A DNA stretch of 13,198 nucleotides from a bacterium (lineage in GTDB: Bacteria > Electryoneota > Electryoneia > Electryoneales > Electryoneaceae), in assembly GCA_043801585.1 (NCBI GenBank), contig JAZDLX010000011.1, positions 1 to 13,198 of the forward strand, read 5' to 3'. Each line of letters starts with the position of its first letter. Positions within the stretch are counted from its first letter, which is position 1. A program made the translations under genes and the position numbers. The notes under the pieces are model-generated. The model searched no databases, was not told where the DNA came from, and was given only the letters and a program-made list of their open reading frames with translations. Shown here one piece after another: positions 1 to 13,198 of this stretch.

Positions 1-25
1 CGCCCGCTTTGGCATCAGCATGGAT

Positions 26-54
26 ATTTTACGGAAGTTGAACACGGCTCTCAA
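26..54 (-). promoter_or_regulatory. Putative sigma70-type promoter
   Basis: TTGAGA (54..49), a 17-nt spacer, then TAAAAT (31..26). Each hexamer matches consensus at 5 of 6 positions, in a non-coding-looking gap downstream of the operon. Confidence 0.6.
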
Positions 55-106
55 GGATGGGGTTTTCAACGGACAGCTGCCTCTTCCACCGCACTACCCC
101 TTAAGA

Positions 107-120
107 GTCCCGAAAGGGAC
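107..120 (-). terminator. Small perfect hairpin downstream of the operon, possible weak terminator or 3' stability stem
   Basis: GTCCC-TTTC-GGGAC on the minus strand (GAAA loop on plus), 75 nt after the TGA. It is followed only by TCTTAA, so the U-tract is poor. Confidence 0.3.
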
Positions 121-194
121 CGGCTATTATCTTGCAGCCACTGTTGGTTCTTTCGAGCCGAAAACCGATAAGTGAAAAGATAAAATGGCGCTTT

Positions 195-1619
195 TCATTT
201 TTTCTGGGACACCTCTTCACATATCGCCGCGCGGTCCGTCCTGATCTGGATCCACCAGATGATGTAAAAGAGGAGGCTGACAAATCCCAGGAAGCCGATG
301 ATTATGAAGATCAGTCTCCAGACCATCGTCCTGTCCGGTGCCTCGGATTTGAGCCAGTTTGCAGTGATATTTTTTAAGCCTGTCTTGCTTGATTTTTCGG
401 CGACTTTCGCCTGGCTTTCCTTTTTTTCCGCCGGGCTGGATTCTTTTTTAGCCTGGGATTCCATGCCCATGCTTTCTGATGTGGTCTCAGGGGCGACGGA
501 ATTGACGACATTCATTCTTGCCAACGAAGCGACCTGTTCTTTCATCTGGGACATGAGGCTCAAATTCTCTATGTAGGCCTCGAGCTTGCTTTCGATCGGC
601 TGGCCTTCCATCTTGGCTGTGTTTTCGGCGATCTGCCTCGCCAGTTCATCCACCTGCTTCTTCATCAGCACCGCCGATACTTGAAACTGTGTCCCTTCCA
701 GACCCTGGGCAAAACCGGCCGCCTTTACCTCCAGTTTCTGAATCTTTTCGGGTTCCACGCGCCAGAGGTCCTTCAAGATGATCTTGTAGGTCTTGGTTTC
801 ACCCGGCGCAAGCGCCACGGCATCCTTAAATAGATAGAGGATGCCGCGACCGGGATCATTGCGAACCTCAAGACCTTCGGAATTGAGCACGTCCTTTACC
901 TTGACTTCCCTCGGAAGATAATAGCTCACGGGCAACAGCGCCTTTTCTGTTTCCGAAGGATTTTTGACAAGTATTTTGAGAGTGATTGCCTGGATCTTGT
1001 CAGCCGGGAGGCCTTTCCCCGCTATTTCATCTTCTTCCGCTTCGATCATGGCTTTATCCATTGGTATCTTGTCCGACGACAGCTTTTCCAGAAAGCGGAT
1101 GTTCTTCCTGGCCTCGCCCAACGTGCCCAGATTCTCGCGATAGATTTCGATATGTCTCGAAGGGTTCACGAGTTCCTCTTGGCTTGTCAGAATATGGTCC
1201 AGACTGGATTCGACGCTGTCTCCGATCTGTTTCGCCGTCCCCGCGTAACTCGAATTGCTGAGCACCTTGAGAAGCGATGGCAAATAACCCTTCTGGAACT
1301 GGATGTCCTTCTCTGGGATCTTCCAGACATCATTCATGCGGACCTCTATCTTCTTCTCCTCTCCGGGCTTGAGCTGGAGTTCACCCACGACCTTGTAGAG
1401 CTTTTGTTCCGTGTCATACACGACGCTTAAGCCCTCGCTCAATCCGATGACGTCCTTCTTGCCGGCTTCGTGCGGAAGCGGCAGTTCCACCGGGACCTTC
1501 TGCTTCTCACCTTCAGAGGGGTTGACGACCATGGCCCTCAGAATAACGCTCCCTGATGCGGCCGTCCGCGCAACGCCCATGAGTGAAAGGAGAAGAAAAA
1601 CGAACAGGCACCGTTTCAT
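195..1619 (-). CDS. Hypothetical exported, membrane-anchored protein with two tandem 187-aa repeats
   Basis: ATG with a GGAGG RBS. Signal-peptide-like N-terminus (MKRCLFVFLLLSLMGVARTA). Duplicated domain (VVNPSEGEK..LP.E...DV...EGL...L.PGE.K......D.W vs VKNPSETEK..LP.E...DV...EGL...LAPGETK......DLW). C-terminal hydrophobic helix WRLIFIIIGFLGFVSLLFYIIWW. TGA stop. Confidence 0.9.
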   Translation of the reverse strand: MKRCLFVFLLLSLMGVARTAASGSVILRAMVVNPSEGEKQKVPVELPLPHEAGKKDVIGLSEGLSVVYDTEQKLYKVVGELQLKPGEEKKIEVRMNDVWKIPEKDIQFQKGYLPSLLKVLSNSSYAGTAKQIGDSVESSLDHILTSQEELVNPSRHIEIYRENLGTLGEARKNIRFLEKLSSDKIPMDKAMIEAEEDEIAGKGLPADKIQAITLKILVKNPSETEKALLPVSYYLPREVKVKDVLNSEGLEVRNDPGRGILYLFKDAVALAPGETKTYKIILKDLWRVEPEKIQKLEVKAAGFAQGLEGTQFQVSAVLMKKQVDELARQIAENTAKMEGQPIESKLEAYIENLSLMSQMKEQVASLARMNVVNSVAPETTSESMGMESQAKKESSPAEKKESQAKVAEKSSKTGLKNITANWLKSEAPDRTMVWRLIFIIIGFLGFVSLLFYIIWWIQIRTDRAAICEEVSQKK

Positions 1620-1625
1620 TGAAAT

Positions 1626-4600
1626 TTATCCTCCGGTTTCAAACCAGGACTTGATTACCGGCCGCGTTGTTTGCTGCCGTACGAGGACGTTGATGACATC
1701 CAGGAGCGCCTTCACCTGGTTCATATCGTTCTGCAGAGACTGGACCTCCTGCGATTGCGCTGGAGATTCTGGAAGGACAGCCTTTCCATCCTTTCCTCTC
1801 AAGCCGCTCAACTCGGAGATCGTCGATTTGAGTTCTGCCGACAGGCCTTCTCCGCTGCTGTTGGTTTTGGATGCCATCTCCGATATTCGAGCATCGACGG
1901 AACGGAGCTGGGAGAGCACGCTTCCAATCATTTGATCGGCAATCTTCCCGCCAAATTGCCCGGACATGAGGATCGCCCTGATATCCAGGGCCGCGGAAGC
2001 CGCATTCTGGGCGTTAGTATTGGCGTTCAGCGCAAAGCTCGACGCATTCGATGCGTCCGTGCCGATGGTGGTAAGGCCGGCTGTTATTGCAGTCACCGCT
2101 CCATTGAGGGTCGCAAGGCCTGAGACTACGGAATCAAGCTTGCCAGAATCCGCGCCGCCGCCTGCCGTGCCGCCGCCACCTGTTTCGCCGCCGCCGGCTG
2201 TTGTGCCCGTCGTGCCGCCGCCGCCGGCCCCGCCTGCGCCGCCACCAGTGCTCGACTGAAGCCTAGCCACCTTTGTCCCCACATCGGTAAGCATGCTCTT
2301 TAAGGACAGCAGATCCGCATAGACCGACGTGGTCGCGCTCGGGGAACCCAGTTTCTGCACGATCGTGTCTTCTGTGTCCTGAACGGCTGTTTGGAGATCG
2401 CTGGAGGCGCCGGCAACCGTCGCCACCACCGTGGCTTTGCTGGCATCCACGACGTCGCTGATATCCTGGGCCTTGCTATCCAGGGCCTGCGTGACCTGGG
2501 TTGTTCGCGCGAGCAACTCATCCTTCAATTCTCCCGTCTTTGTGGTCATGTGGGTCTTCACGTTTTCTTCGGTCTCCTTCACGGCCGAGGAGATCCCGGT
2601 GGCTGCCGCCTCAACCTGATCGGCCGAGTCCTGCATTGCAGAGATGCTCGCCGTAACTGCGCTTGCGGCAGTCCCAAGGCTTGTAACCTGCGTGCTGATG
2701 TTGCTCGCCGCATTGGTCAGGCTCGCGACCGCCGGGGCCATCTGGCCGGAGATGGTGTTCAACTGCCCGACCGCGGTGTTGATGGCTCCAACGCTTGACT
2801 GGACGGTCGACTTCACTTCGACCGTCTTGTTATAGGCGTTGGTGACCTGGTCGTAGATGGATTGCGCCGATTGGTTTCCCCACTTCTGATGGAGATATTC
2901 GGTCAGTCCGAATAACGTATCGGCGTCAGGGTTATCCCCGGGGTTGCCAAATGCGCCCAGGAGACCATCGAGTTGGGACTTCAGCGTCTCGGCGTCCGTT
3001 GTTCCCCACTTGCTCAAGATCGAATCCACGTTATTGCTGAGGGTCGTCTGAACGAATGTTTCGAGGGAGGCAAGTTTGTTATAAATCGTAACGTCATTTT
3101 CGAGCCTCACGCTGAGCACCATGCTGTCGGTGGTGTTCTTGACCGATTCGGAACAGATGATCGTCCAATCGCCCAGGTTCCATGCCGGATTCGTGAAGAG
3201 GGCATATTCGTAAATTCCACTCCCTCCGACCGGCGTCATCGCCGCCTGATCCACCCTGAGGAGGTTGTTGCCGTCATAGACGTCTATCTTGGGGGCCAGC
3301 TCTGCCGCCGTCCGATACCGGATCATCAGCGTTCGCCCGGTCGTGGCGGCATTCTCTCGATTGAGTATCTGGGCATGGAACTCGGTCTTTATCGACGCGT
3401 CCATCTCGGTCAGTTTGTCCGGTATCGTCGTGGAGGTGTCCTCCAGGATGGCGGTGACGTCCGTCTGGAGATCGCCCAGCAACCCGGGGAGCACGGTCCC
3501 CGTATCCGTCTTGATGCTGTCGACAACACCTTTCACGCCGGCGATATCGTTTTTGAGTTCATCCCTGGCTGCATCGATCTGATCGCCCAGGTTGGAGGCC
3601 CCTCCAGCGAGCGTGCCAGTGCCCAGATTGGTTCCCGACGCCACCAGCATCCGGCTATCCAGCAGATCCATGCCTTCATAGGTCTTGCCGGAATTGGCGG
3701 TGACGACGGTCGCCACGCGATAGGTGGTGGCCGGTAGCATGTTGTTTTCGGCGTCCTTGAAGAGCCAAGTCATGCGGAAAACTCCCGCCGCGGGCGTGTC
3801 GGAAACAAGCGGCATATTGGCCACTGTCACATTGGTGCCGGCATCCGAGATGGTGACCGTCGCGTCTGAAACCGCAGAGGAGAGCTTCCCATCGATGGTA
3901 AGCCATGTGTCAATTTTGAAGTTCTTGTTCAGAGGATCGTATGTAAACTGGCTGCGGGACTGGCCTGTGCCGCTTCCGCTTCCGCCGCCGCCGCCGCCGC
4001 CGCCCGACTGGCCCACCAATGCCCTGGCATCCAGCTGGGTCGGGTTAGTCAGAGTCGTTCCCGAGATCATCGTCACAGAAGTGACCACCTTGTAGGTCTT
4101 GGCAGGCAATGCATTTCCTGCGCCGTCTACAAAGACCCAGCTCTGGCGGACGACGCCTCTTTCATCCGGTCCTTTCGGACAGGCCGCCCTGACCTCCGCT
4201 GAGTGCGGATGATTCGCATGATCTTCAGCGCACGTTGCGGTAAGAGAGGCCACCAAAGTATCGGCCCCGGTGCCCGAATTAAAGTCGTATATGTCGACCT
4301 TTCCTACGGTGACAGACGGGAACGGCTGGCCGTCGCGCTCAAGCCATGAGTCGATGGTGAAGGCATTGGCTTCAGGGTCATAGGAGAACGAACTCTTCGC
4401 CAGGTTCGAGTGGATGATCGTGGATTCCATGAAGACCAGGAACTCCATATCCACATCTGTGCACCAGCTGTCGAACATCGGGTCGAAAGCGGGGTTCGGC
4501 GACCCATCATCGAGCAACTTCGGCTGGCCCTTATCGTCATAACAACGCCCGTTGGAGTTGGAGCTGATGACCTGTGTAAAGTAACCAGGGCGGTCCCATG

Positions 4601-7600
4601 TCATTTTCTGGGAAAGATTGCCGACTCCCATCTGGTTTAAGTAGCTGTTTGGAACGGAGAGTCTGAAGGGCGACTGGGCGCCGGTGTCCGACCATACACC
4701 GACCTTATTGCCGTTAGGATCGGTGAAATTCAAGAGCCCTTCAAGGTTCCCCAGATCGTTTCCTAACTGGAGATCTCTCAAATTCCACCGGACCTTCCAG
4801 TAATCCACGTCGAATGTGGCATCGGAATCGTCGGAAGAGGCAGGATGTCCTCCTCCAACGTTATCGGAAACCACGGCCTTCTCGGCCACCGGAAGCCTCA
4901 TGAATTTCTGGTTTGTAATGTCCGGATCGATCGTCGGGAGATCGGCCACTTCCCAGGGATAACAACCGGTCGCCCCTTGCGGGACCGTGCAGGAAACCGT
5001 CGCCCCATAGGCGGCGGTTATGCTGTTGGCGCCGTCCACCAGGCCCGTGACGATCGTCCCCGCCTTGGCTCCCGCGTACTCCAGCTTGATATTGCCGACC
5101 GTAGAGCGGATGCTGGTCGCCGGGTTGATGGTGGTCCAGGCGATATCCTTGATCTGTCGTGATATCCACCGCTCTCCTCCGTTCGGCGACTTTACTTCAA
5201 AGTATGCCTTGACGTTGAAGGCGGTCTCCCACTTCACGTTGGCGTCGCCAGGATCGCTCACGCGGATCTTGGCCGCAGTGGATATGGCGTCTGGAACGTT
5301 CCACGAGATGCTTCCACCGCCATCCGCCTGTCCATCCCTGTTAGGACTGTTCGCGGCGTCGTCGTCGATCAGGACCGTATCGCTGAAGTCGCCCAGTTGC
5401 GAGAACTCTACTTTGATGGCGGTGAGCTGGCCTGTGGTGTCCCATGAAATCGTTTTCTGGTCGCCTGCCCTCCATGTTTCTTCGGAGGCCGGGCTGGTTA
5501 TCGAGAGCGAACCCTGGATGGCGAATGGGTCGCCCGAATCATCGCTGGACGCCGGATGGCTGGAATCGGTGTCTGTGATCAGAATCTTGGCGTCACCGGA
5601 AGGCGTATCCGGCACCGTCCAGCTATAACAACCGGTGGCGCCCTGCGGGACCTCGCATCCGCCGTTCGAACCGTTGGAGACATTCGCGACGAGGTTCCAG
5701 GTCGGAGTTTCATCCGAGGCGTCCGTGGAGTAATCGATCCTCAAAGTTTCGAGCGTCGAGGCGGTGCTGGTCGCGGGATTGACGGTCGTCCAGCTGATCA
5801 TAGTCGGCGTCAAAATCTGCAACCACTCCCCTCCGTTCGGGGCCTTGACTTCCATATAGGCCTTGATCGTAAACGGGTTGTTGGAAGGATCCACCATGGG
5901 CGGATGGCCGGCGTCGGCATCCGAGACCCTGACCTTCACCGTGTTATCCGTAATCGCGTTCGGCACCGTCCAGAGATAGCAGCCGGTGTCGCCCTGCGGG
6001 ATCGTGCAGGCCCCGGTCGCCCCGGCGTTTGCTGGAGTTGCGATAGTCACGGCATCCGTGAAGTTGCCCAGCTTCGAGTATTCCAGTTTCACATCCGTGA
6101 CGTCTCCAACCGTCTTCCATGAAATGGTCTGCTGCGAACCGACCGCCCAATCCTCTCCGCCATTGGGATCGGTCAATGTCATATCGGAACGGATGTAGAA
6201 TACTGCGTCGGATACGTCTTTTCCATCCGGATCGTTTACATCCATCACTCGAATCTTGGCCGTGGAGGATATATCGTCCGGGATCTCCCACTTGTAGCAG
6301 CCCTGCCCGTCAGGCGCCGTGCAGCCTCCGTTGTCCTCGTTCGATCCATTCACGGCATTGGTGTCGATGTCAGTCCAACTCGTGTCGTTCTTTGTGTAAG
6401 CGAGCTTCACGTACGCAACCGAGCCCGCCCTGTTCCAGGTGATGGTCTGGAGGCTTTCGACCGGCCATGACTCCGCCGAAGGCGTGCCGTTCGGCGCGGT
6501 GACCGTGAATCCGCCGACGATCCTGAAATCATCGTTCGAGAGATCGTTCGCCGCCGACACGCTCGGATCAGATATCCTCACCTTGACATTCTTGGTGGAA
6601 GGAGCAGATATCGCGTTGGGGATCGTCCAGACATAGCAGCCGCCGCCGTTCGGGCGATCGCAGTCTCCGGTCGCCCCCAGGTTGACCACGGTGCCGATGG
6701 TGGTCTTCTGGCTCTCGTCGGCAAAGCCATTGGTGGAGTATTCGAGTTTCACGTTGGTCAGGTTTCCAACCGTCGTCCACGAAATCACCTGTCCGGACCC
6801 CACGGGCCAGATTTCGTTCCCGGTGTTGGGGGTTGCCACCGTGATGACCGCGCGGATCTTGAACTCAACCGACTCGTCTTTTGAAACGGAGTCGTTGGCA
6901 TCCGAGACCCTGATCATGGCTGTTTCCGAGACGCCCGCTTCGGCCACCTGCCAGGCATAACAACCCTCGCCGGCCACGGCGGCACAGTCGCCGTCTGCGC
7001 CGTCGTTCGCGATGGTGTTGGATCCGTTGTTCGCGGACGGATTGATCTCGACCGTCTGCTGTTCATCCGCAAAGCTATTGGTGGAGTACTCGATCTTGAC
7101 GTTGTTGACCGAGCCCCGCTTCTGCCATTGAATTGTCTTTAAGAGGCCGGCTTTCCAAACTTCTGCGCCAGGGCTCGTGACCGTGAACGCGGCCCGGGCC
7201 GTGAATTCGTGATCGGAGACGTCGATGACGTTCGAATCGTTGAGGAGGATGATCTTCACGCCCATCAGGTTGCTGACCGCATCGCTCACGTTCCATGGGT
7301 AACAGCCGCCGCCCTCTGGAGGAGTGCACCCGCTGTTTGCTCCGTTCGTGAGCGCTGTGGCGATCAGGTAAGGATAACTATCAGACCCATTGTTCACCGA
7401 GTACCTTAGTTCAACGTTTCCGCTCATCGCGCCGGTCGTGCCATCCTTGTGCCATGTGATCGCATGCGGGCTCTGGACCTCCCAATCCTCGCGCGTTAGG
7501 GGTCCTGCTCCATCCGGATCTCCGTTGGGCGACAGGATCGTCAGTTTCCCGCGGATGGCGAATGGGTTGGTCGAGACACCGGTCGTGGCTGTGTCGCCCG

Positions 7601-7700
7601 TGAGGATTATCTTTATCTTCACGTTGTTGCTGATGTTGTCCGGGATCTCCCATGTGCACAATCCGTCTGATGCAAGGCGGGCGCCCTCCTCACAGACGAC
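1626..7700 (-). CDS. Giant surface protein, in-frame C-terminal continuation: PNGGE-type Ig-like repeats (Kre9/KNH, 'Ser-Thr-rich GPI-anchored'-like), globular domains and a coiled-coil stalk
   Basis: Same frame as 7701..13198. Directly after the TAG it reads VVCEEGARLASDGLCTWEIPDNIS, which completes the interrupted domain. Eight further domains of the P-N-G-G-E-x-W...I-x-W type follow. The track's TTG start at 7661 has no well-spaced RBS and no signal peptide. Ends in TAA at 1626..1628. The family assignment is from motif recognition, not a search. Confidence 0.85.
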   Translation of the reverse strand, partial: VVCEEGARLASDGLCTWEIPDNISNNVKIKIILTGDTATTGVSTNPFAIRGKLTILSPNGDPDGAGPLTREDWEVQSPHAITWHKDGTTGAMSGNVELRYSVNNGSDSYPYLIATALTNGANSGCTPPEGGGCYPWNVSDAVSNLMGVKIILLNDSNVIDVSDHEFTARAAFTVTSPGAEVWKAGLLKTIQWQKRGSVNNVKIEYSTNSFADEQQTVEINPSANNGSNTIANDGADGDCAAVAGEGCYAWQVAEAGVSETAMIRVSDANDSVSKDESVEFKIRAVITVATPNTGNEIWPVGSGQVISWTTVGNLTNVKLEYSTNGFADESQKTTIGTVVNLGATGDCDRPNGGGCYVWTIPNAISAPSTKNVKVRISDPSVSAANDLSNDDFRIVGGFTVTAPNGTPSAESWPVESLQTITWNRAGSVAYVKLAYTKNDTSWTDIDTNAVNGSNEDNGGCTAPDGQGCYKWEIPDDISSTAKIRVMDVNDPDGKDVSDAVFYIRSDMTLTDPNGGEDWAVGSQQTISWKTVGDVTDVKLEYSKLGNFTDAVTIATPANAGATGACTIPQGDTGCYLWTVPNAITDNTVKVRVSDADAGHPPMVDPSNNPFTIKAYMEVKAPNGGEWLQILTPTMISWTTVNPATSTASTLETLRIDYSTDASDETPTWNLVANVSNGSNGGCEVPQGATGCYSWTVPDTPSGDAKILITDTDSSHPASSDDSGDPFAIQGSLSITSPASEETWRAGDQKTISWDTTGQLTAIKVEFSQLGDFSDTVLIDDDAANSPNRDGQADGGGSISWNVPDAISTAAKIRVSDPGDANVKWETAFNVKAYFEVKSPNGGERWISRQIKDIAWTTINPATSIRSTVGNIKLEYAGAKAGTIVTGLVDGANSITAAYGATVSCTVPQGATGCYPWEVADLPTIDPDITNQKFMRLPVAEKAVVSDNVGGGHPASSDDSDATFDVDYWKVRWNLRDLQLGNDLGNLEGLLNFTDPNGNKVGVWSDTGAQSPFRLSVPNSYLNQMGVGNLSQKMTWDRPGYFTQVISSNSNGRCYDDKGQPKLLDDGSPNPAFDPMFDSWCTDVDMEFLVFMESTIIHSNLAKSSFSYDPEANAFTIDSWLERDGQPFPSVTVGKVDIYDFNSGTGADTLVASLTATCAEDHANHPHSAEVRAACPKGPDERGVVRQSWVFVDGAGNALPAKTYKVVTSVTMISGTTLTNPTQLDARALVGQSGGGGGGGGSGSGTGQSRSQFTYDPLNKNFKIDTWLTIDGKLSSAVSDATVTISDAGTNVTVANMPLVSDTPAAGVFRMTWLFKDAENNMLPATTYRVATVVTANSGKTYEGMDLLDSRMLVASGTNLGTGTLAGGASNLGDQIDAARDELKNDIAGVKGVVDSIKTDTGTVLPGLLGDLQTDVTAILEDTSTTIPDKLTEMDASIKTEFHAQILNRENAATTGRTLMIRYRTAAELAPKIDVYDGNNLLRVDQAAMTPVGGSGIYEYALFTNPAWNLGDWTIICSESVKNTTDSMVLSVRLENDVTIYNKLASLETFVQTTLSNNVDSILSKWGTTDAETLKSQLDGLLGAFGNPGDNPDADTLFGLTEYLHQKWGNQSAQSIYDQVTNAYNKTVEVKSTVQSSVGAINTAVGQLNTISGQMAPAVASLTNAASNISTQVTSLGTAASAVTASISAMQDSADQVEAAATGISSAVKETEENVKTHMTTKTGELKDELLARTTQVTQALDSKAQDISDVVDASKATVVATVAGASSDLQTAVQDTEDTIVQKLGSPSATTSVYADLLSLKSMLTDVGTKVARLQSSTGGGAGGAGGGGTTGTTAGGGETGGGGTAGGGADSGKLDSVVSGLATLNGAVTAITAGLTTIGTDASNASSFALNANTNAQNAASAALDIRAILMSGQFGGKIADQMIGSVLSQLRSVDARISEMASKTNSSGEGLSAELKSTISELSGLRGKDGKAVLPESPAQSQEVQSLQNDMNQVKALLDVINVLVRQQTTRPVIKSWFETGG
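1630..1634 (-). promoter_or_regulatory. Shine-Dalgarno site (GGAGG) for the 474-aa gene, embedded in the last two Gly codons of the giant gene
   Basis: mRNA reads ACC GGA GGA TAA ATTTCA ATG: GGAGG lies 10 nt before the ATG, and the intergenic gap is 6 nt. Confidence 0.8.
3982..4004. repeat. (CCG)7 trinucleotide tract encoding a poly-Gly linker
   Basis: ccgccgccgccgccgccgccgcc; the protein reads QSGGGGGGGGSGSG. Confidence 0.9.
4810..7550 (-). repeat. Eight divergent Ig-like repeats of about 105-130 aa (PNGGE type), seven carrying a C-x(7-8)-C-Y-x-W loop
   Basis: Domain starts: SPNGD, SPGAE, TPNTGNE, APNGT, DPNGGE, APNGGE, SPASEE, SPNGGE. Boundaries are approximate. Confidence 0.85.
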
Positions 7701-7703
7701 CTA
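7701..7703 (-). other. Single in-frame amber (TAG) codon interrupting the giant ORF (nonsense mutation, sequence error or readthrough site)
   Basis: Minus strand reads AAT TAT CCC TAT TAG GTC GTC TGT GAG = N Y P Y * V V C E. The next domain reads GSDSYPYLIA at the homologous position. Confidence 0.92.
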
Positions 7704-10700
7704 ATAGGGATAATTGTCCGACCCGCCGTTGATGGTATACCAGAGGGTCACGGCGCCGGCCATCGGCCCTGTCGAACCAAAGGGCGTCCATGTGATCTCT
7801 GTCTCGCCGTTGACCTCGAAGAAGGTGTTGGGGTTCGAGCCTGGTTCATTCATCACCAGCCTTCCACGGACCGGGAAGTCGGCGGAGACGGCCTCGGTCA
7901 GCGGGTGATCCGCATTTGCGTCTTTTGCCTTTACGTAGGTATTCGGTGAAAGAGCCGCGCCTGGAACGTTCCATGTGTTGTAAGCGGTGCCTGTGACGGG
8001 TCCCGTGGTGGTGATCAATGTCCAATCGCTTCCATTGATCGAGTAATAGAGGTCCACGGAGCTGATCGTGGAGCTCTTGGTCCATTCAATCGGCGGCGTG
8101 TCACTGACCTCGTAAGCCGTGAGCCCATCCGGCTTCGTCACTGCAAGTTTTCCTTTGATGCCGAAGGAGGTGGAGACCGCCTGGCTTGCCGGGTTGCTCA
8201 AATTGGCGTCCTTGACCTTCAAGGTGACGGTCGCCCCGATGGCCTCCGGCGGCACTGTCCAATCGACGCTGGAGACGGCAAGATTGCTGGCAATGAGCGT
8301 GTCTGCCCCGCCCACCGTGTAGTAGAGGTGGACCTCCGGCATGTTGCCGTTTTTCGACCATGCAATCGGAACTTCATCATCCACCGTGATCACGCCGCTG
8401 GGGGCGGTGGTGAATGCAAGAATTCCCTTCATATCGAAGAGGTTCGAACTCACCTCGTTGGGGGCATGATTGACAAGGTCTGCATCCTTCACTTTCAGCA
8501 GCACGTTCTTGCCGACCATGGCGGCCAGGGCATTGAAGTTGTAGCTGGTGGTTGGAGCCACGATCGGAGAGCTGTTGATCTTGACGTCATCGCCTGCTCC
8601 GATCTTATAGAAGACGTTGATATCGGTGATGTTGCCCGACACGCCCCAGCCGATCACAACAGCATCGTTCGAGGCGAAGGTTTGTCCTGAAGTGACCGCA
8701 TCACCGTCGATCGTGAAACTGTCGATGGTGATTGTCCCCTTCACGTGGAAGAGGGTGGAGGCAGACGACTCGGTGGCGGGATGACCGCTCGTGTTGGCGT
8801 CTTTAACCTTCAGGACCACGTTCCTGCCCAGCATGCCATCGGGAACATTGAAGCCGTAGGTTGTTCCGTTGATGGCGCTGGTGTTGAGTTTAAGATCGGA
8901 GCCGCCGTTTATCGAATAGTAGACGTCAAAGGAGGCGATATTTCCAGTATAGGCCCATTGGATCGAGACCGGATCGTTCACGCTCAAGGTCGTCCCTGCG
9001 GTTGCCACCGGCTGGGTCGTGATCGCGATCGTCCCCTTCATATCGAAGGCGCTGGATGGGGAAGACACGACGATAGGATGGCTGACGTCGGCATCCTTCA
9101 CCTTCAGGACGATATTCTTTCCGGTCATGGCGGCGGGCGCTGTGAAGGTGTGACTGTTCGTCCCCTCGATGGGCGTGCCGTTCACCAGCTGGTCGGCGCC
9201 GCCGTCGATCGAATACAGGACATTGAACTTCGTGATGCCGCTCGGATTCCAACCGACCACCACCGTATTCCCGGTTATGAAGGTCTGCCCGCTGGTGACC
9301 GCCTGGCCATCGACCGTGAGACTTGTGATCGCCAGGGTTCCGCTGATATCCATCGAGTTCGAAAGCGCCGTGGCCGTCGTCGGATGGTCGGCGTTCGCGT
9401 CATACGCCTTGAGGGTCACTCCGGTGCCGGTCATCTCCGGAAGCAGATTGAAACTGATCGGCAGCTGGCTCGAAGCGATCGCCGAACCGTCGCCGTTGTG
9501 GTTGATGTAGGTCTCGGCCCCGGCGATCACATAATAGAGATGATACGTATTGACCGACGCCGCGTTCGAGCTCCAGTTCATCGAGATCTCATCCCCAACC
9601 ACCTTCGCCGTGTGGTCGGCCCCGACGGGTTGAGTCGTGACCGTGAGCGCGGCCTTCACGTTGAAGGCGTTCGACGCCGGCGGGGAGAGGGCCTGCGGAT
9701 GGTTCGTCGTGTCCGCGTCCTTCACGATGACGGTGAGGCTCTTTCCGACCATGGCGCTTGCCAGGGCGAACGTGCAGCTGTTGGCCGCGATGTTCGAGCA
9801 GCCGGAGACAGCGTTCTCCGAGCCCGAGCCGATCTTGTAGACCACGTCGAAGTTCGTGAGGCCGACGTCGCTCCACTCGATCGTCCGGTTCGCGCCGCCT
9901 ATGGTCAGAGTCTCATCCGCGCTGGCCGGCTGCGCCGTGATCGCGATCGTGCCGCTGATATTCATCGAGTTCGAGGCGGCAGAGGACGAGACAGGATGCG
10001 CCGGATCATAATCCTTCACCTTGAGCCTCACGGTCTTTCCGACCATCGTGTCCACAATGCCGAACGTGCAGGATGCTGTCGCCGAGGGCACGTCGTTGCA
10101 GGCGGCGATCAGGGTGTCCGACCCGCCGTTGATCGAATAGAAGACGTCATATTTCACGATACCCGACGGCCCGCTCCACGCGATAGAGACAGCGTCTCCA
10201 GCGCTCTTCGCGGTGTCATCGGCGGGAACCGGCTGGGTCGTGAGCGTTATCGCTCCGCTGATATCCATCGAGTTTGAAAGCGCCGAGACCGTGCTCGGAT
10301 GGTCCGTGTTCGCGTCATACGCCCTCAGGCTCACTGCGGTGCCGACCATATCCGGAAGCAGAGTAAGGGTGATCGGCAGTTGGTTCGAAGCGATCGCCGT
10401 GCCGTCGCCGTTGTAGTTGATGTAGGTCTCCGCTCCGCCGATCACATAATACAGATGATACGTATTGACCGACGCCGCGTTCGAGCTCCAGTTCATCGAG
10501 ACCTGGTCCCCAACCAGCTTCGCCGTGTTGTTGCCCGGGGCGGGCTGCGTCGTGATCGTGAGCGCGCCCTTCACGTTGAAGACGTTCGAAACAAGAGGAC
10601 TCTGCACCTGCGGATGGATCGCTGTGTCGGCATCCTTCACGATAACAGTGAGATTCTTGCCGACCATGGCGTTTGCCAGGGCGAACGTGCAGCTGTTGGC

Positions 10701-13198
10701 CGCGAGGTTCGAGCAGCCGCTGACGGCGTTCTCCGAGCCCGACCCGATCTTGTAGAACACGTCGAAGTTCGTGAGGCCGACGTCGGTCCACTCTATCGTC
10801 CGGTCCGCTCCGCCGATCGTCAATGTTTCATTCGCATTCGCCGGCTGGGCAAGTATCGCGATCGTTCCGCTCACATCCATCGAGTTCGAGGCGGCAGAAG
10901 CGGTGACCGGATTGCTCATATTCGCGTCTTTCAACTTCAGGCGGACGTTCTGCCCCACCATTTCGGGCAGGATGCCCGTCGGGAAGGTGTAGGGAGAGGT
11001 GGTGATCGGGCTGGAGTTGATCTTGACCTCCGACCCGCCGTCGATCGAGTAGAAGAGGTCGTACTGGGTGATGTTGCCGGTTGTGCCCCAGCCGATCGAG
11101 AGCGGATCACCAGCGCTCTTCGCGGTGTCGTCCGCGGGCGCCGGTTGTGATGTGATCGAGAGCGTTCCGCTGATATCCATCGAGTTCGAAAGCGCCGTGG
11201 CCGTAGTCGGATGGTTCGCATTCGAGTCATACGCCTTGAGGCTCACTCCGGTGCCGACCATATCAGAAAGCAGATTGAAGCTGATCGGGAGTTGGTTCGA
11301 AGCGATCGCCGAACCGTCGCCGTTGTAATTGATGTAGGTCTCCGCCCCGCCGAGCACATAATACAGATGGTACGTATTGACCGACGCGGCGTTCGAGCTC
11401 CAGTTCATTGACACCTGGTTGCCCACCACCTTCGGAGTGTTGTCGCCCGGGGCAGGCTGGGTCGTGATCGTGAGCGCGCCCTTCACGTCGAAGGCGTTCG
11501 AAGAGGGCGGAGAGGCCACCTGGGGATGGTTCGTCGTGTCCGCGTCCTTCACGATGACGGTGACGCTCTTGCCGACCATGCCGCTTGCCAGGGCGAACGT
11601 GCAGCTGTTGGCCGCGAGGTTCGAGCAGCCGCTTACGGCGTTCTCCGAGCCCGAGCCGATCTTGTAGACCACGTCAAAGTTCGTGAGGCCGACGTCGCTC
11701 CACTCGATCGTCCGGTTCGCCCCGCCGATCGTCAATAGCTCGGCCGCGCTGGCAGGCTGGCTCGTGATCGCGATCGTTCCGCTGATGTTCATCGAGTTCG
11801 AGGCGGCAGAAACTGAAGCCGGATGCGCCGGATCATAATCCTTCACCTTGAGCCTCACGGTCTTCCCGACCATCGTATCCATGAGGCTGAACGTGCAGGA
11901 TGATGTCGCCGCAAGAATGTCATTGCAGGCGGCGATCAGGGTGTCAGACCCGCCGTCGATCGAATAGAAGACGTCGTATTTCACGATGCCCGATGGCCCG
12001 CTCCACGCGATGGAGATAGCGTCTCCAGCGTCCTTCGCGGTGTCGTCGGCGGGCGCCGGCTGGGTCGTGAGCGTTATCGCCCCGCTGATATCCATCGAGT
12101 TCGAAAGCGCGGAGACCGTCGTCGGATGATCCGCGTTCGCGTCATACACCTTGAGGCTCACTCCGGTTCCGACCATCGCAGGAAGCAGCGTGAGGCTGAT
12201 CGGAAGGTCGGCATCGGTGATAGCCGCGCTGCCGCCTTTGTAGTCGATGTAGGTCTCCGCTCCGCTGATCACATAGTAGAGATTGTAAGTGCTGACCGAC
12301 GCGGCGTTCGCGCTCCAGTTCATCGGAACCACGTCCCCAACCACCTTCGCTGTGTTGTTGGCCCCGACCGGCTGGGTCGTGATCGTGAGCGCGCCCTTCA
12401 CATTGAAGACGCTCGAAACCGGCGGGGAAAGGACCTGCGGATGCGTCGCTGTGTCGGCATCCTTCACGATGACAGTGAGGTTCTTGCCGACCATGCCGCT
12501 TGCCAGGGCGAACGTGCAGCTGCTGGCCGCAGTATTGCTGCAGCCGCTGACGGCGTTTTCGGAACCGGACCCGATCTTGTAAACCACGTCAAAGTGGGTG
12601 ACTCCGGTGCCGGTCGACCACTCGATCGTCGGGCTCGCCCCGCCGATCGTCAATGTGTCGCCCGCGCCCGCTGGCTGGGCCGTGATCGCGATCGTTCCGC
12701 TCACATCCATCGAGTTCGAGGCGGAAGAGGAGATCGCCGGGTGGGTCAGGTCGGCGTCCTTTGTCTTCAGGCGGACGTTGTTGCCCACCATCGCGGGCAG
12801 AATGCTGAAGGCATAGGGAGAGGTTGTAAGCGTCGTGGCGTTGATCTTTACATCCGACCCGCCGTCGATCGAATAGAAGACGTCGAACTTGGTGATATTG
12901 CCGACGGCGCCCCAGCCGATCGAGATCGAATCCCCAACGCTCTTCGCGGTGTCGTCAGCGGGCGCCGGCTGTGATGTGATCGAAATCGTGCCGCTGATGT
13001 CCATCGAGTTTGAAAGCGCCGTTGCCGTTGCCGGATGATCGGCGTTCGAGTCATATGCCTTGAGGCTCACTCCGGTCCCCACCATTCCCTCAAGCAGATC
13101 GAAGCTGACAGGCAGCTGAGCCGCAAGGATCGCCGAACCGTCGCCGTTGTAGTTGATGTAGGTCTCCGCCCCGCTGATCACATAATAGAGATGATACG
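7701..13198 (-). CDS. Giant secreted/surface repeat protein (Ig-like beta-sandwich array, putative adhesin), segment upstream of the in-frame TAG; 5'-partial
   Basis: The frame stays open to the window edge (YHLYY precedes the track's GTG 'start', matching other repeat copies), so the true start lies outside the window. It encodes about 19 Ser/Thr/Ala/Gly-rich domains of about 100 aa with the pattern G-x-[IL]-x-[IL]-T-x-Q-P...W...Y...K-D-A-[DN]-x(2-3)-H-P. It ends mid-domain at TAG 7701..7703. Confidence 0.9.
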   Translation of the reverse strand, partial: YHLYYVISGAETYINYNGDGSAILAAQLPVSFDLLEGMVGTGVSLKAYDSNADHPATATALSNSMDISGTISITSQPAPADDTAKSVGDSISIGWGAVGNITKFDVFYSIDGGSDVKINATTLTTSPYAFSILPAMVGNNVRLKTKDADLTHPAISSSASNSMDVSGTIAITAQPAGAGDTLTIGGASPTIEWSTGTGVTHFDVVYKIGSGSENAVSGCSNTAASSCTFALASGMVGKNLTVIVKDADTATHPQVLSPPVSSVFNVKGALTITTQPVGANNTAKVVGDVVPMNWSANAASVSTYNLYYVISGAETYIDYKGGSAAITDADLPISLTLLPAMVGTGVSLKVYDANADHPTTVSALSNSMDISGAITLTTQPAPADDTAKDAGDAISIAWSGPSGIVKYDVFYSIDGGSDTLIAACNDILAATSSCTFSLMDTMVGKTVRLKVKDYDPAHPASVSAASNSMNISGTIAITSQPASAAELLTIGGANRTIEWSDVGLTNFDVVYKIGSGSENAVSGCSNLAANSCTFALASGMVGKSVTVIVKDADTTNHPQVASPPSSNAFDVKGALTITTQPAPGDNTPKVVGNQVSMNWSSNAASVNTYHLYYVLGGAETYINYNGDGSAIASNQLPISFNLLSDMVGTGVSLKAYDSNANHPTTATALSNSMDISGTLSITSQPAPADDTAKSAGDPLSIGWGTTGNITQYDLFYSIDGGSEVKINSSPITTSPYTFPTGILPEMVGQNVRLKLKDANMSNPVTASAASNSMDVSGTIAILAQPANANETLTIGGADRTIEWTDVGLTNFDVFYKIGSGSENAVSGCSNLAANSCTFALANAMVGKNLTVIVKDADTAIHPQVQSPLVSNVFNVKGALTITTQPAPGNNTAKLVGDQVSMNWSSNAASVNTYHLYYVIGGAETYINYNGDGTAIASNQLPITLTLLPDMVGTAVSLRAYDANTDHPSTVSALSNSMDISGAITLTTQPVPADDTAKSAGDAVSIAWSGPSGIVKYDVFYSINGGSDTLIAACNDVPSATASCTFGIVDTMVGKTVRLKVKDYDPAHPVSSSAASNSMNISGTIAITAQPASADETLTIGGANRTIEWSDVGLTNFDVVYKIGSGSENAVSGCSNIAANSCTFALASAMVGKSLTVIVKDADTTNHPQALSPPASNAFNVKAALTVTTQPVGADHTAKVVGDEISMNWSSNAASVNTYHLYYVIAGAETYINHNGDGSAIASSQLPISFNLLPEMTGTGVTLKAYDANADHPTTATALSNSMDISGTLAITSLTVDGQAVTSGQTFITGNTVVVGWNPSGITKFNVLYSIDGGADQLVNGTPIEGTNSHTFTAPAAMTGKNIVLKVKDADVSHPIVVSSPSSAFDMKGTIAITTQPVATAGTTLSVNDPVSIQWAYTGNIASFDVYYSINGGSDLKLNTSAINGTTYGFNVPDGMLGRNVVLKVKDANTSGHPATESSASTLFHVKGTITIDSFTIDGDAVTSGQTFASNDAVVIGWGVSGNITDINVFYKIGAGDDVKINSSPIVAPTTSYNFNALAAMVGKNVLLKVKDADLVNHAPNEVSSNLFDMKGILAFTTAPSGVITVDDEVPIAWSKNGNMPEVHLYYTVGGADTLIASNLAVSSVDWTVPPEAIGATVTLKVKDANLSNPASQAVSTSFGIKGKLAVTKPDGLTAYEVSDTPPIEWTKSSTISSVDLYYSINGSDWTLITTTGPVTGTAYNTWNVPGAALSPNTYVKAKDANADHPLTEAVSADFPVRGRLVMNEPGSNPNTFFEVNGETEITWTPFGSTGPMAGAVTLWYTINGGSDNYPY
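9339..13198 (-). repeat. Intragenic tandem repeat, 909-915 bp unit (3 domains), with a higher-order 1824-1827 bp period (6 domains)
   Basis: The marker gtaggtctc (encoding ETY) starts at 13158, 12249, 11334, 10422 and 9507, giving spacings of 909, 915, 912 and 915 bp. Alternate units are more alike than adjacent ones. Confidence 0.95.

Follow-up and report, generated by a model that had tools for sequence, protein, structure and literature searches.

A lone in-frame amber codon in a giant repeat-protein gene is very probably a recent nonsense change or an assembly error

Giant surface-protein genes broken at one point have been seen before, some through mutation in particular strains and others through faulty assembly. 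The giant ebh gene is split into ebhA and ebhB in S. aureus Mu50 and N315 (PMC3868527), and two adjacent giant Omnitrophota ORFs became one gene after a local assembly error was fixed (West-Roberts et al., 10.1101/2023.11.21.568195). The locus described here lies in a window of 13,198 nucleotides (the whole stretch of DNA analysed) and resembles both cases. As with ebhA/ebhB, a giant repeat surface gene that is intact in relatives has been broken once; the ebh break, however, is a frameshift in some cultured strains whereas ours is an in-frame amber codon in a metagenome assembly, and the two proteins are unrelated as far as tested. As with the West-Roberts giants, two adjacent giant ORFs on one contig are one gene for an Omnitrophota-type protein, and pilus or secretion genes and cell-wall enzyme genes are found nearby (PilM/N, PilO and SLT in the orthologous locus L035). 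Unlike here, the error in that study was shown by reads, and its proteins are reported as at least 30,000 aa long with many membrane helices, whereas our giant has none in 3,856 residues, its 5' end being missing. Tandem Ig-like repeats are shared with the tandem-repeat giants described from Omnitrophota (Nielsen and Lui, 10.64898/2026.06.07.730766, class 2; Seymour et al., PMC10066038), from which the window differs in its missing 5' end and in an anchor encoded by its own gene, in which the module is doubled. With pyrrolysine insertion and programmed readthrough the locus shares an in-frame TAG at a sense position and selection on both sides of it, but here the codon is unconserved, no RNA element accompanies it and no machinery was found in the genome bin.

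The amber codon occupies positions 7703-7701 of the minus strand and is in frame with its surroundings (AAT TAT CCC TAT TAG GTC GTC TGT GAG GAG GGC). Upstream of it, 1,831 codons of ~100-aa repeats (7704-13196, minus strand) form a frame that is open at the contig end, the true start lying outside the assembly; downstream, 2,024 codons followed by TAA (1626-7700, minus strand) encode more Ig-like repeats, a helical stalk and a final strand. A first-pass annotation had read these two frames as one gene parted by a single TAG, and the reading holds: within at least 3,856 codons for a predicted surface protein there is one TAG. It had also noted that the codon sits at a sense position of the paralogous repeat and that the real gene ends are TAA and TGA; both observations stand, the matching place in the next repeat being YPYL with a CTG codon. 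The amber-split pair is the longest among 173 same-frame ORF pairs (both at least 250 codons) in the genome bin. The giant holds at least 25 tandem ~100-aa Ig-like units, and within 9324-13198 a three-domain unit is repeated at a DNA identity of 78-85%.

The interrupted repeat (7557-7871, minus strand; 105 aa) is predicted to be Ig-like from a model of the intact orthologous domain, a seven-stranded beta-sandwich (mean pLDDT 85.5) in which the TAG falls at residue 57, inside strand 56-58, and three strands lie C-terminal to the stop position. Matches to this domain were of Ig/Fn3 type and weak, none with E ≤ 0.001. A real stop would make ribosomes let go of a shortened chain of repeats only, which breaks off inside the beta-sandwich and has neither the stalk nor the last strand; little of the downstream half would then be translated since, as previously claimed, that half has neither a signal peptide nor a well-placed RBS. 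At the three nearest in-frame starts after the stop (TTG 7661, GTG 7622, ATG 7427) purine motifs lie 16-26 nt upstream, too distant for an RBS, and the coding strand between 7300 and 8100 contains no promoter-like or terminator-like site.

Comparison with orthologues, a check the first-pass annotation had proposed, indicates that the TAG is private to this sequence. All four orthologues (75-83% identity) carry a sense codon at the site: Glu in P0002, which aligns at 82.7% over 1,864 aa with zero gaps, Glu (GAA) in L035, Glu in P0147 and Gln (CAA) in L034. In-frame TAG occurs in 0 of 3,786 and 0 of 2,145 orthologous codons versus 1 of 3,856 here. P0002 and L035 are identical at 609/625 positions, and L034 and P0147 at 88.8%, so the four do not represent four independent lineages. 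The ancestral residue was probably Glu (3/4 orthologues), which would make GAG to TAG the shortest route, with CAG to TAG also possible; the codon ends in A in both DNA orthologues, so two changes lie between their codon and TAG. A search of the whole library gave no further close orthologue, and each half of the gene forms a single-member cluster seen on one contig; thus a second assembly of this strain did not turn up. Neither a search of metagenome contigs for the exact junction (0 matches) nor scans of genome contigs (0/28 candidates confirmed with the junction and 0/53 with the anchor alignment) added to this set, and in a junction search of 40 relatives nine gave weak repeat matches alone (E ≥ 4e-8), none orthologous. 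Mis-assembly between repeat copies was rejected, as the stop is over 1 kb away from the DNA self-repeats (9007-13198) and there is no match in any other contig; a compensating frameshift was likewise rejected, given stops in the other frames and a gapless orthologue alignment.

The contig is Omnitrophota-derived by appearance and probably misbinned. The nearest Atlas clusters of the gene following the giant, here called the anchor gene, are mostly Omnitrophota (0.93), and that gene is absent from 78/78 other genomes of the bin's phylum. The nearest named relatives of the repeats, the stalk end and the anchor are labelled Omnitrophota or Omnitrophica and carry PF10342 and PF21471; the giant's own match to PF10342 is weak (E 0.003, below cut-off), and NCBIfam gave nothing above cut-off. 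The contig has no marker gene, and the closest orthologue, P0002, is labelled Patescibacteria. Results on RF1, TAG ends, tRNAs and pyl genes accordingly describe the bin and not surely the contig's host, and the bin's lack of pyl genes and of a CUA-anticodon tRNA is weaker as a negative because the contig is probably foreign.

Within those bounds, the search for decoding machinery that had been suggested came back empty. Profiles for PylS-N, PylS-C, PylB and PylD were run against the bin (92% complete), giving no PylS-N, PylS-C or PylD match, and PylB scored 120 bits against a cut-off of 348; the PheS-type match seen with PylS-C in 13/14 control genomes was missed in the bin. A CUA anticodon was found in 0 of 41 ARAGORN tRNAs, a set from which tRNA-Tyr is also missing. 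RF1 is present (484 bits), TAG terminates 289 of 1,559 long ORFs, and among TAG-separated same-frame pairs an ATG follows within 50 codons in 42/54. Features of genome-wide TAG reassignment are absent: the in-frame TAG is alone, and the bin uses TAG as a terminator and has RF1. Two marks of programmed readthrough are absent as well, the stop being conserved in 0/4 orthologues and accompanied by no stimulatory RNA structure or motif. Against base shuffles, the 60 nt after the stop scored z -0.6 for structure and the 90 nt z -0.1, the orthologues fold differently, and Rfam gave no match close to the gathering score.

With sense codons in all four orthologues, a private TAG and neither pyl genes nor a CUA tRNA in the bin, we consider the codon very probably a recent nonsense change or an assembly error and not programmed recoding. 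This was one of two options left by the first-pass annotation; the other, programmed readthrough, amber suppression or pyrrolysine insertion, is unsupported on the same evidence, in a bin that is probably not the contig's host. Between the two components of the favoured option, a recent real mutation has about an even chance of being the explanation, and an error in the assembly consensus is somewhat less probable. As a recoding site the amber codon most likely does not matter, and annotation should join both ORFs as one gene.

Selection downstream bears on the age of the stop. That part shows no sign of relaxed selection and no further stop: lineage-specific N/S changes number 137/157 in the window versus 120/154 in L035 (Fisher p = 0.55). 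Neutrality along the whole branch would be expected to bring ~43 further stops and none is seen, so a real, unread stop would date to the last ~7% of the branch. Purifying selection together with the absence of further stops leaves three readings of the codon, a very young stop, an error or readthrough, and this selection fits readthrough equally well. One observation is not explained by a single base-call error, namely a patch of lineage-private conservative substitutions around the codon (7689-7721, minus strand), with 10 nt changes in 10 flanking codons. Codons +1 to +4 have six private changes, a number matched by 4 of 2,116 such windows on this branch and 0 of 2,116 on the L035 branch; for codons -6 to +4, a span chosen after looking, the 10 private changes are matched in 1 of 2,069. 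The flank is less conserved, not more. Conversion templated by the next repeat or by other nearby sequence was rejected: the bin has no donor, and within 400 nt there is neither a direct nor an inverted repeat of 8-12 nt. It is this patch that keeps readthrough in consideration at all, as an unlikely explanation.

How might such a stop be read? One improbable account holds that it is real, older than it appears and leaky, near-cognate tRNAs (Gln, Tyr, Lys) keeping the downstream half under selection, and, equally improbably, that the neighbouring changes were selected for more readthrough, yielding a shed N-terminal form and less of the full-length protein. The private changes that cluster directly after the stop are conservative (I to V, T to V, Q to E) and place G at +4, which raises readthrough in E. 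coli reporters, where TAG is read as Tyr, Gln or Lys (PMC11126739); Gln is tolerated at the site in L034, and downstream selection is intact. However, G follows GAG or CAG codons in 49/150 cases in the giant gene anyway, the five nucleotides upstream of the stop (CCTAT) are close to a T-rich context, which the same report found to lower readthrough, and truncation falls mid-domain, without RNA structure or conservation in any of the four orthologues. The upstream loop changes also have parallels in the next repeat, so this lineage alters these loops without any stop. If it were nonetheless leaky, the amber codon could, as a doubtful extension, be a lineage-specific tether-or-release switch in a host-attached bacterium, between a shed repeat-only form and a full-length adhesin; no less doubtfully, the adhesin's last beta-strand would dock into a separately encoded, putative membrane anchor. 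Readthrough of this kind, if shown, would mean selection for leakiness of an amber codon in a bacterial surface protein, which would be a rarity.

Less probable again is that the contig's true host has a pyrrolysine system or an amber suppressor tRNA and tolerates TAG as a sense codon at a variable surface site. Probable misbinning means that the bin's missing pyl genes do not bind the host, and archaea with genome-wide TAG = Pyl exist in which PYLIS is dispensable (10.1101/2024.09.30.615893). The same study, as far as its account of bacteria goes, reports bacterial Pyl only in serine dehydratase and methylamine methyltransferases, and our literature search found no link between Pyl and Omnitrophota. 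The giant gene itself has one TAG versus 101 CAA/CAG and 112 GAA/GAG codons, with none in two orthologues, and TAG terminates an ORF in L034. Most improbable of all is functional gene fission, with the halves made separately, the second by reinitiation, and then reassembled. A natural split does exist elsewhere in the family, at the stalk/anchor junction, but it has an RBS and a signal peptide while the amber site has neither; here the domain is cut after residue 56 of 105, and an end at such a loop is seen in just two of 378 fetched proteins, the window's own and the distant P0298.

That natural split is more interesting than the amber codon. The first-pass annotation had placed a putative anchor in the downstream part and proposed an anchored full-length isoform, which was wrong in this detail: in the 3,856-residue read-through protein no 19-residue window reaches a hydropathy of 1.8 (best after the stop, 1.48), although the N-terminus lies beyond the contig. 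Instead, the membrane anchor is the product of the next gene (195-1619, minus strand; 474 aa), with a predicted signal peptide, two anchor-module copies and a C-terminal hydrophobic helix, its hydrophobic segments thus lying at both termini. A GGAGG at 1634-1630 stands 10 nt ahead of its ATG. Readthrough of the giant's TAA into this gene was rejected, being in frame here and out of frame in L034 and L035. Beyond the anchor gene locus L035 continues with PilM/PilN, PilO/T2SSM and SLT; SLT, a lytic transglycosylase gene, follows the anchor gene there, and the window retains the 3' end of its orthologue (1-175, plus strand).

The homologue of the anchor gene in relatives with a fused giant is the giant's C-terminal module. 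Sections 8-10 of the Nielsen and Lui preprint mention neither this module nor the fused/split junction, and the literature on Omnitrophota has, among the matches listed, no mention of strand complementation or Kre9. A fold search with a model of the fused tail and anchor gave mostly generic helical bundles (best Z 9.6) and was uninformative. Of 67 related giants, 30 fetched proteins carry tail and anchor in a single chain and 33 stop at the junction between the two, a result worth more than the amber codon itself. The cut lies between two predicted hairpin strands, the last strand of the giant here being PVIKSWFETGG, and the pattern suggests a testable way for giants that carry no membrane helix to stay attached to the cell.

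The window makes up the whole of contig C192 in genome bin G000 (3.28 Mb, 225 contigs, 92% complete). On its minus strand, a TAG at 7703-7701 splits the giant gene into 1,831 codons, still open where the contig ends, and 2,024 codons closed by a TAA. It is the sole stop within the 3,856 codons, and none of the bin's 173 same-frame ORF pairs is longer. The giant chain consists of ~100-aa repeats, at least 25 in number. The structural model of an intact orthologous repeat (mean pLDDT 85.5) shows a beta-sandwich of seven strands with weak, Ig/Fn3-like fold matches; the stop falls at residue 57 of 105, within a short strand, and three strands remain after it. The frames and the repeat model thus bear out the proposal of the first-pass annotation that an in-frame TAG splits the gene mid-domain.

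That annotation also proposed aligning orthologues, and all four that we compared are uninterrupted at the stop site, with a sense codon encoding Glu in three and Gln in one. The protein P0002, whose gap-free alignment spans 1,864 residues (82.7%), reads YPY-E-ITC at the site, P0147 has Glu, and the metagenome loci L035 and L034 carry GAA (Glu) and CAA (Gln), respectively; in both loci the giant shares the window's C-terminus, and the 474-aa gene comes next. Because P0002 matches L035 at 609/625 residues and L034 is 88.8% identical to P0147, the four represent two or three lineages. No second assembly of the window strain was found, each half of the window gene being a single-member cluster seen on one contig.

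Between the window and L034, dN/dS is 0.14 upstream of the stop; downstream it is 0.18-0.19 across the repeats and reaches 0.37 in the stalk. The downstream bins of L034 versus L035 give 0.14-0.18 and 0.29. Pairs containing the window are slightly higher before the stop (0.21 vs 0.17, 135 codons) as well as after it (0.26-0.30 vs 0.21), and an elevation seen on both sides has no particular link with the stop. In the downstream half, lineage-specific changes (N/S) number 137/157 for the window and 120/154 for L035 (p = 0.55). If the downstream half had been neutral over the whole branch, ~43 further stops would be expected; none was observed, which points to a TAG that arose very late (within the final ~7% of the branch), is an error or is read through, three cases that the selection test cannot separate.

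C192 is probably misbinned and foreign to the bin. Its genes have relatives labelled mostly Omnitrophota, and the neighbours of the bin's RF1 are labelled Calditrichaeota and Marinimicrobia. In 78 other genomes from the bin's phylum the anchor gene or module was not found, nor was a sequence related to C192 elsewhere in the bin, and the tetranucleotide correlation of C192 (0.62) is the lowest of 34 contigs of 10-17 kb, in a composition test that repetitive content may bias. Horizontal transfer may instead account for the foreign look. P0002, the closest orthologue, may be misbinned too; it is labelled Patescibacteria group, and its 5.6-kb contig consists wholly of this gene.

The most reasonable explanation for the TAG, and one we hold with high confidence, is a recent nonsense change or an assembly error. 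A Glu codon, presumably GAG, would recently have turned into TAG, either in the organism itself or in its assembly; both G-to-T and C-to-T arise often, spontaneously as well as through library damage. If the TAG is real, translation would yield a truncated repeat chain lacking the stalk and terminal strand, with little expression expected of the downstream half because none of the in-frame starts close to the stop comes with an RBS at a suitable distance. Counting against a nonsense change or assembly error is a patch of lineage-private substitutions around the stop (7689-7721, minus strand). The stop and the next two codons read TAG GTC GTC versus GAA ATT ACA, differing at 7/9 bases, which 3 of 2,133 windows reach. 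With the stop left out, codons +1 to +4 hold six private changes, a number reached by 4/2,116 windows on this branch and by 0/2,116 along that of L035. Ten fall in codons -6 to +4, a span chosen post hoc (1/2,069); codons -5 to -1 show ordinary divergence (658/2,104). The private substitutions are conservative and the upstream ones have parallels in the next repeat, so the patch looks evolved rather than like noise; no donor template for the changes was found. They also place a G at +4 of the TAG, as might suit selected, leaky readthrough: in E. coli reporters, the available text of PMC11126739 reports, G at this position raised readthrough and Tyr, Gln or Lys was inserted at TAG. However, 49 of the 150 GAG/CAG codons in the giant gene are followed by a G in any case, and the CCTAT upstream of the TAG is similar to the T-rich context for which the same text of PMC11126739 reports reduced readthrough. 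We judge such readthrough unlikely.

Reading of the TAG by pyrrolysine (Pyl) or a suppressor is, in our judgement, less probable still. The accessible parts of 10.1101/2024.09.30.615893 and PMC13695967 report TAG as Pyl genome-wide in archaea and confine bacterial Pyl to a few enzymes, and those of PMC9324843 contain no pyrrolysine-Omnitrophota link. The bin has an RF1 gene, TAG terminates 289 of its 1,559 long non-overlapping ORFs, and among its 54 TAG-separated same-frame pairs, 42 offer an ATG in the first 50 codons past the stop. The suppressor or Pyl machinery that the first-pass annotation suggested seeking did not emerge in the bin: its 41 tRNAs include none with a CUA anticodon, and searches for PylS-N, PylS-C, PylB and PylD gave nothing above cut-off, negatives that are weakened because C192 is probably foreign. 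Codon counts from the contig's own lineage speak against a changed code, the giant gene having one TAG versus 101 Gln and 112 Glu codons, with 0/3,786 and 0/2,145 in-frame TAGs in orthologous codons. No stable RNA structure, and none shared with orthologues, follows the stop, and an Rfam search nearby gave two matches, both chance-level. Recoding, as raised from the initial sequence reading, is not supported. Three TAG-separated same-frame pairs, on C112, C217 and C3, lack any start codon in the 50 codons that follow the stop and could represent shadow frames or broken genes. The tRNA scan of the bin also called a tRNA-Sec and an odd tRNA-Asn with anticodon ATT, and found no tRNA-Tyr.

The putative anchor had been placed in the downstream half, but the read-through chain has no membrane helix and it is the next gene that has hydrophobic segments at both ends. 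Its 474-aa product matches the C-terminal module of related giants twice, as two module copies. In the region spanning giant end and anchor gene (window 195-1660, minus strand; L034 11325-12825; L035 6400-7845) the module is, at all three loci, a separate gene with an RBS, a predicted signal peptide and two copies of the module; these three loci are the only ones where this is shown on DNA, and in each the purine-rich RBS overlaps the giant's last codons. At L035 7882-11082 (minus strand), SLT transglycosylase, PilO/T2SSM and PilM-PilN genes converge on the giant-anchor operon. Omnitrophota giant proteins and pilus/secretion neighbours are described in the available portions of 10.64898/2026.06.07.730766 and PMC10066038; the main text of the former, as far as available, has no mention of stop codon, readthrough, pyrrolysine or frameshift.

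The giant's C-terminus, WFETGG, is the exact point where related proteins run on into the anchor module, and P0147 ends there as do the window, L034 and L035 giants. The window's last 70 residues align weakly with the pre-anchor segment of fused proteins (E 5e-4 to 2e-5, single comparisons). A profile of this segment, built from 14 of the fused proteins, found it in 67 of 378 fetched proteins: 30 are fused to the module, 33 stop at this point to within 5 residues and four are otherwise. In the model of P0145, a fused giant, the tail finishes in a strand (37-43, pLDDT ~55-68) that leads, at modest confidence, through a two-residue tight turn into the module's first strand. This suggests that in split giants the terminal strand may provide docking to the anchor by strand complementation.
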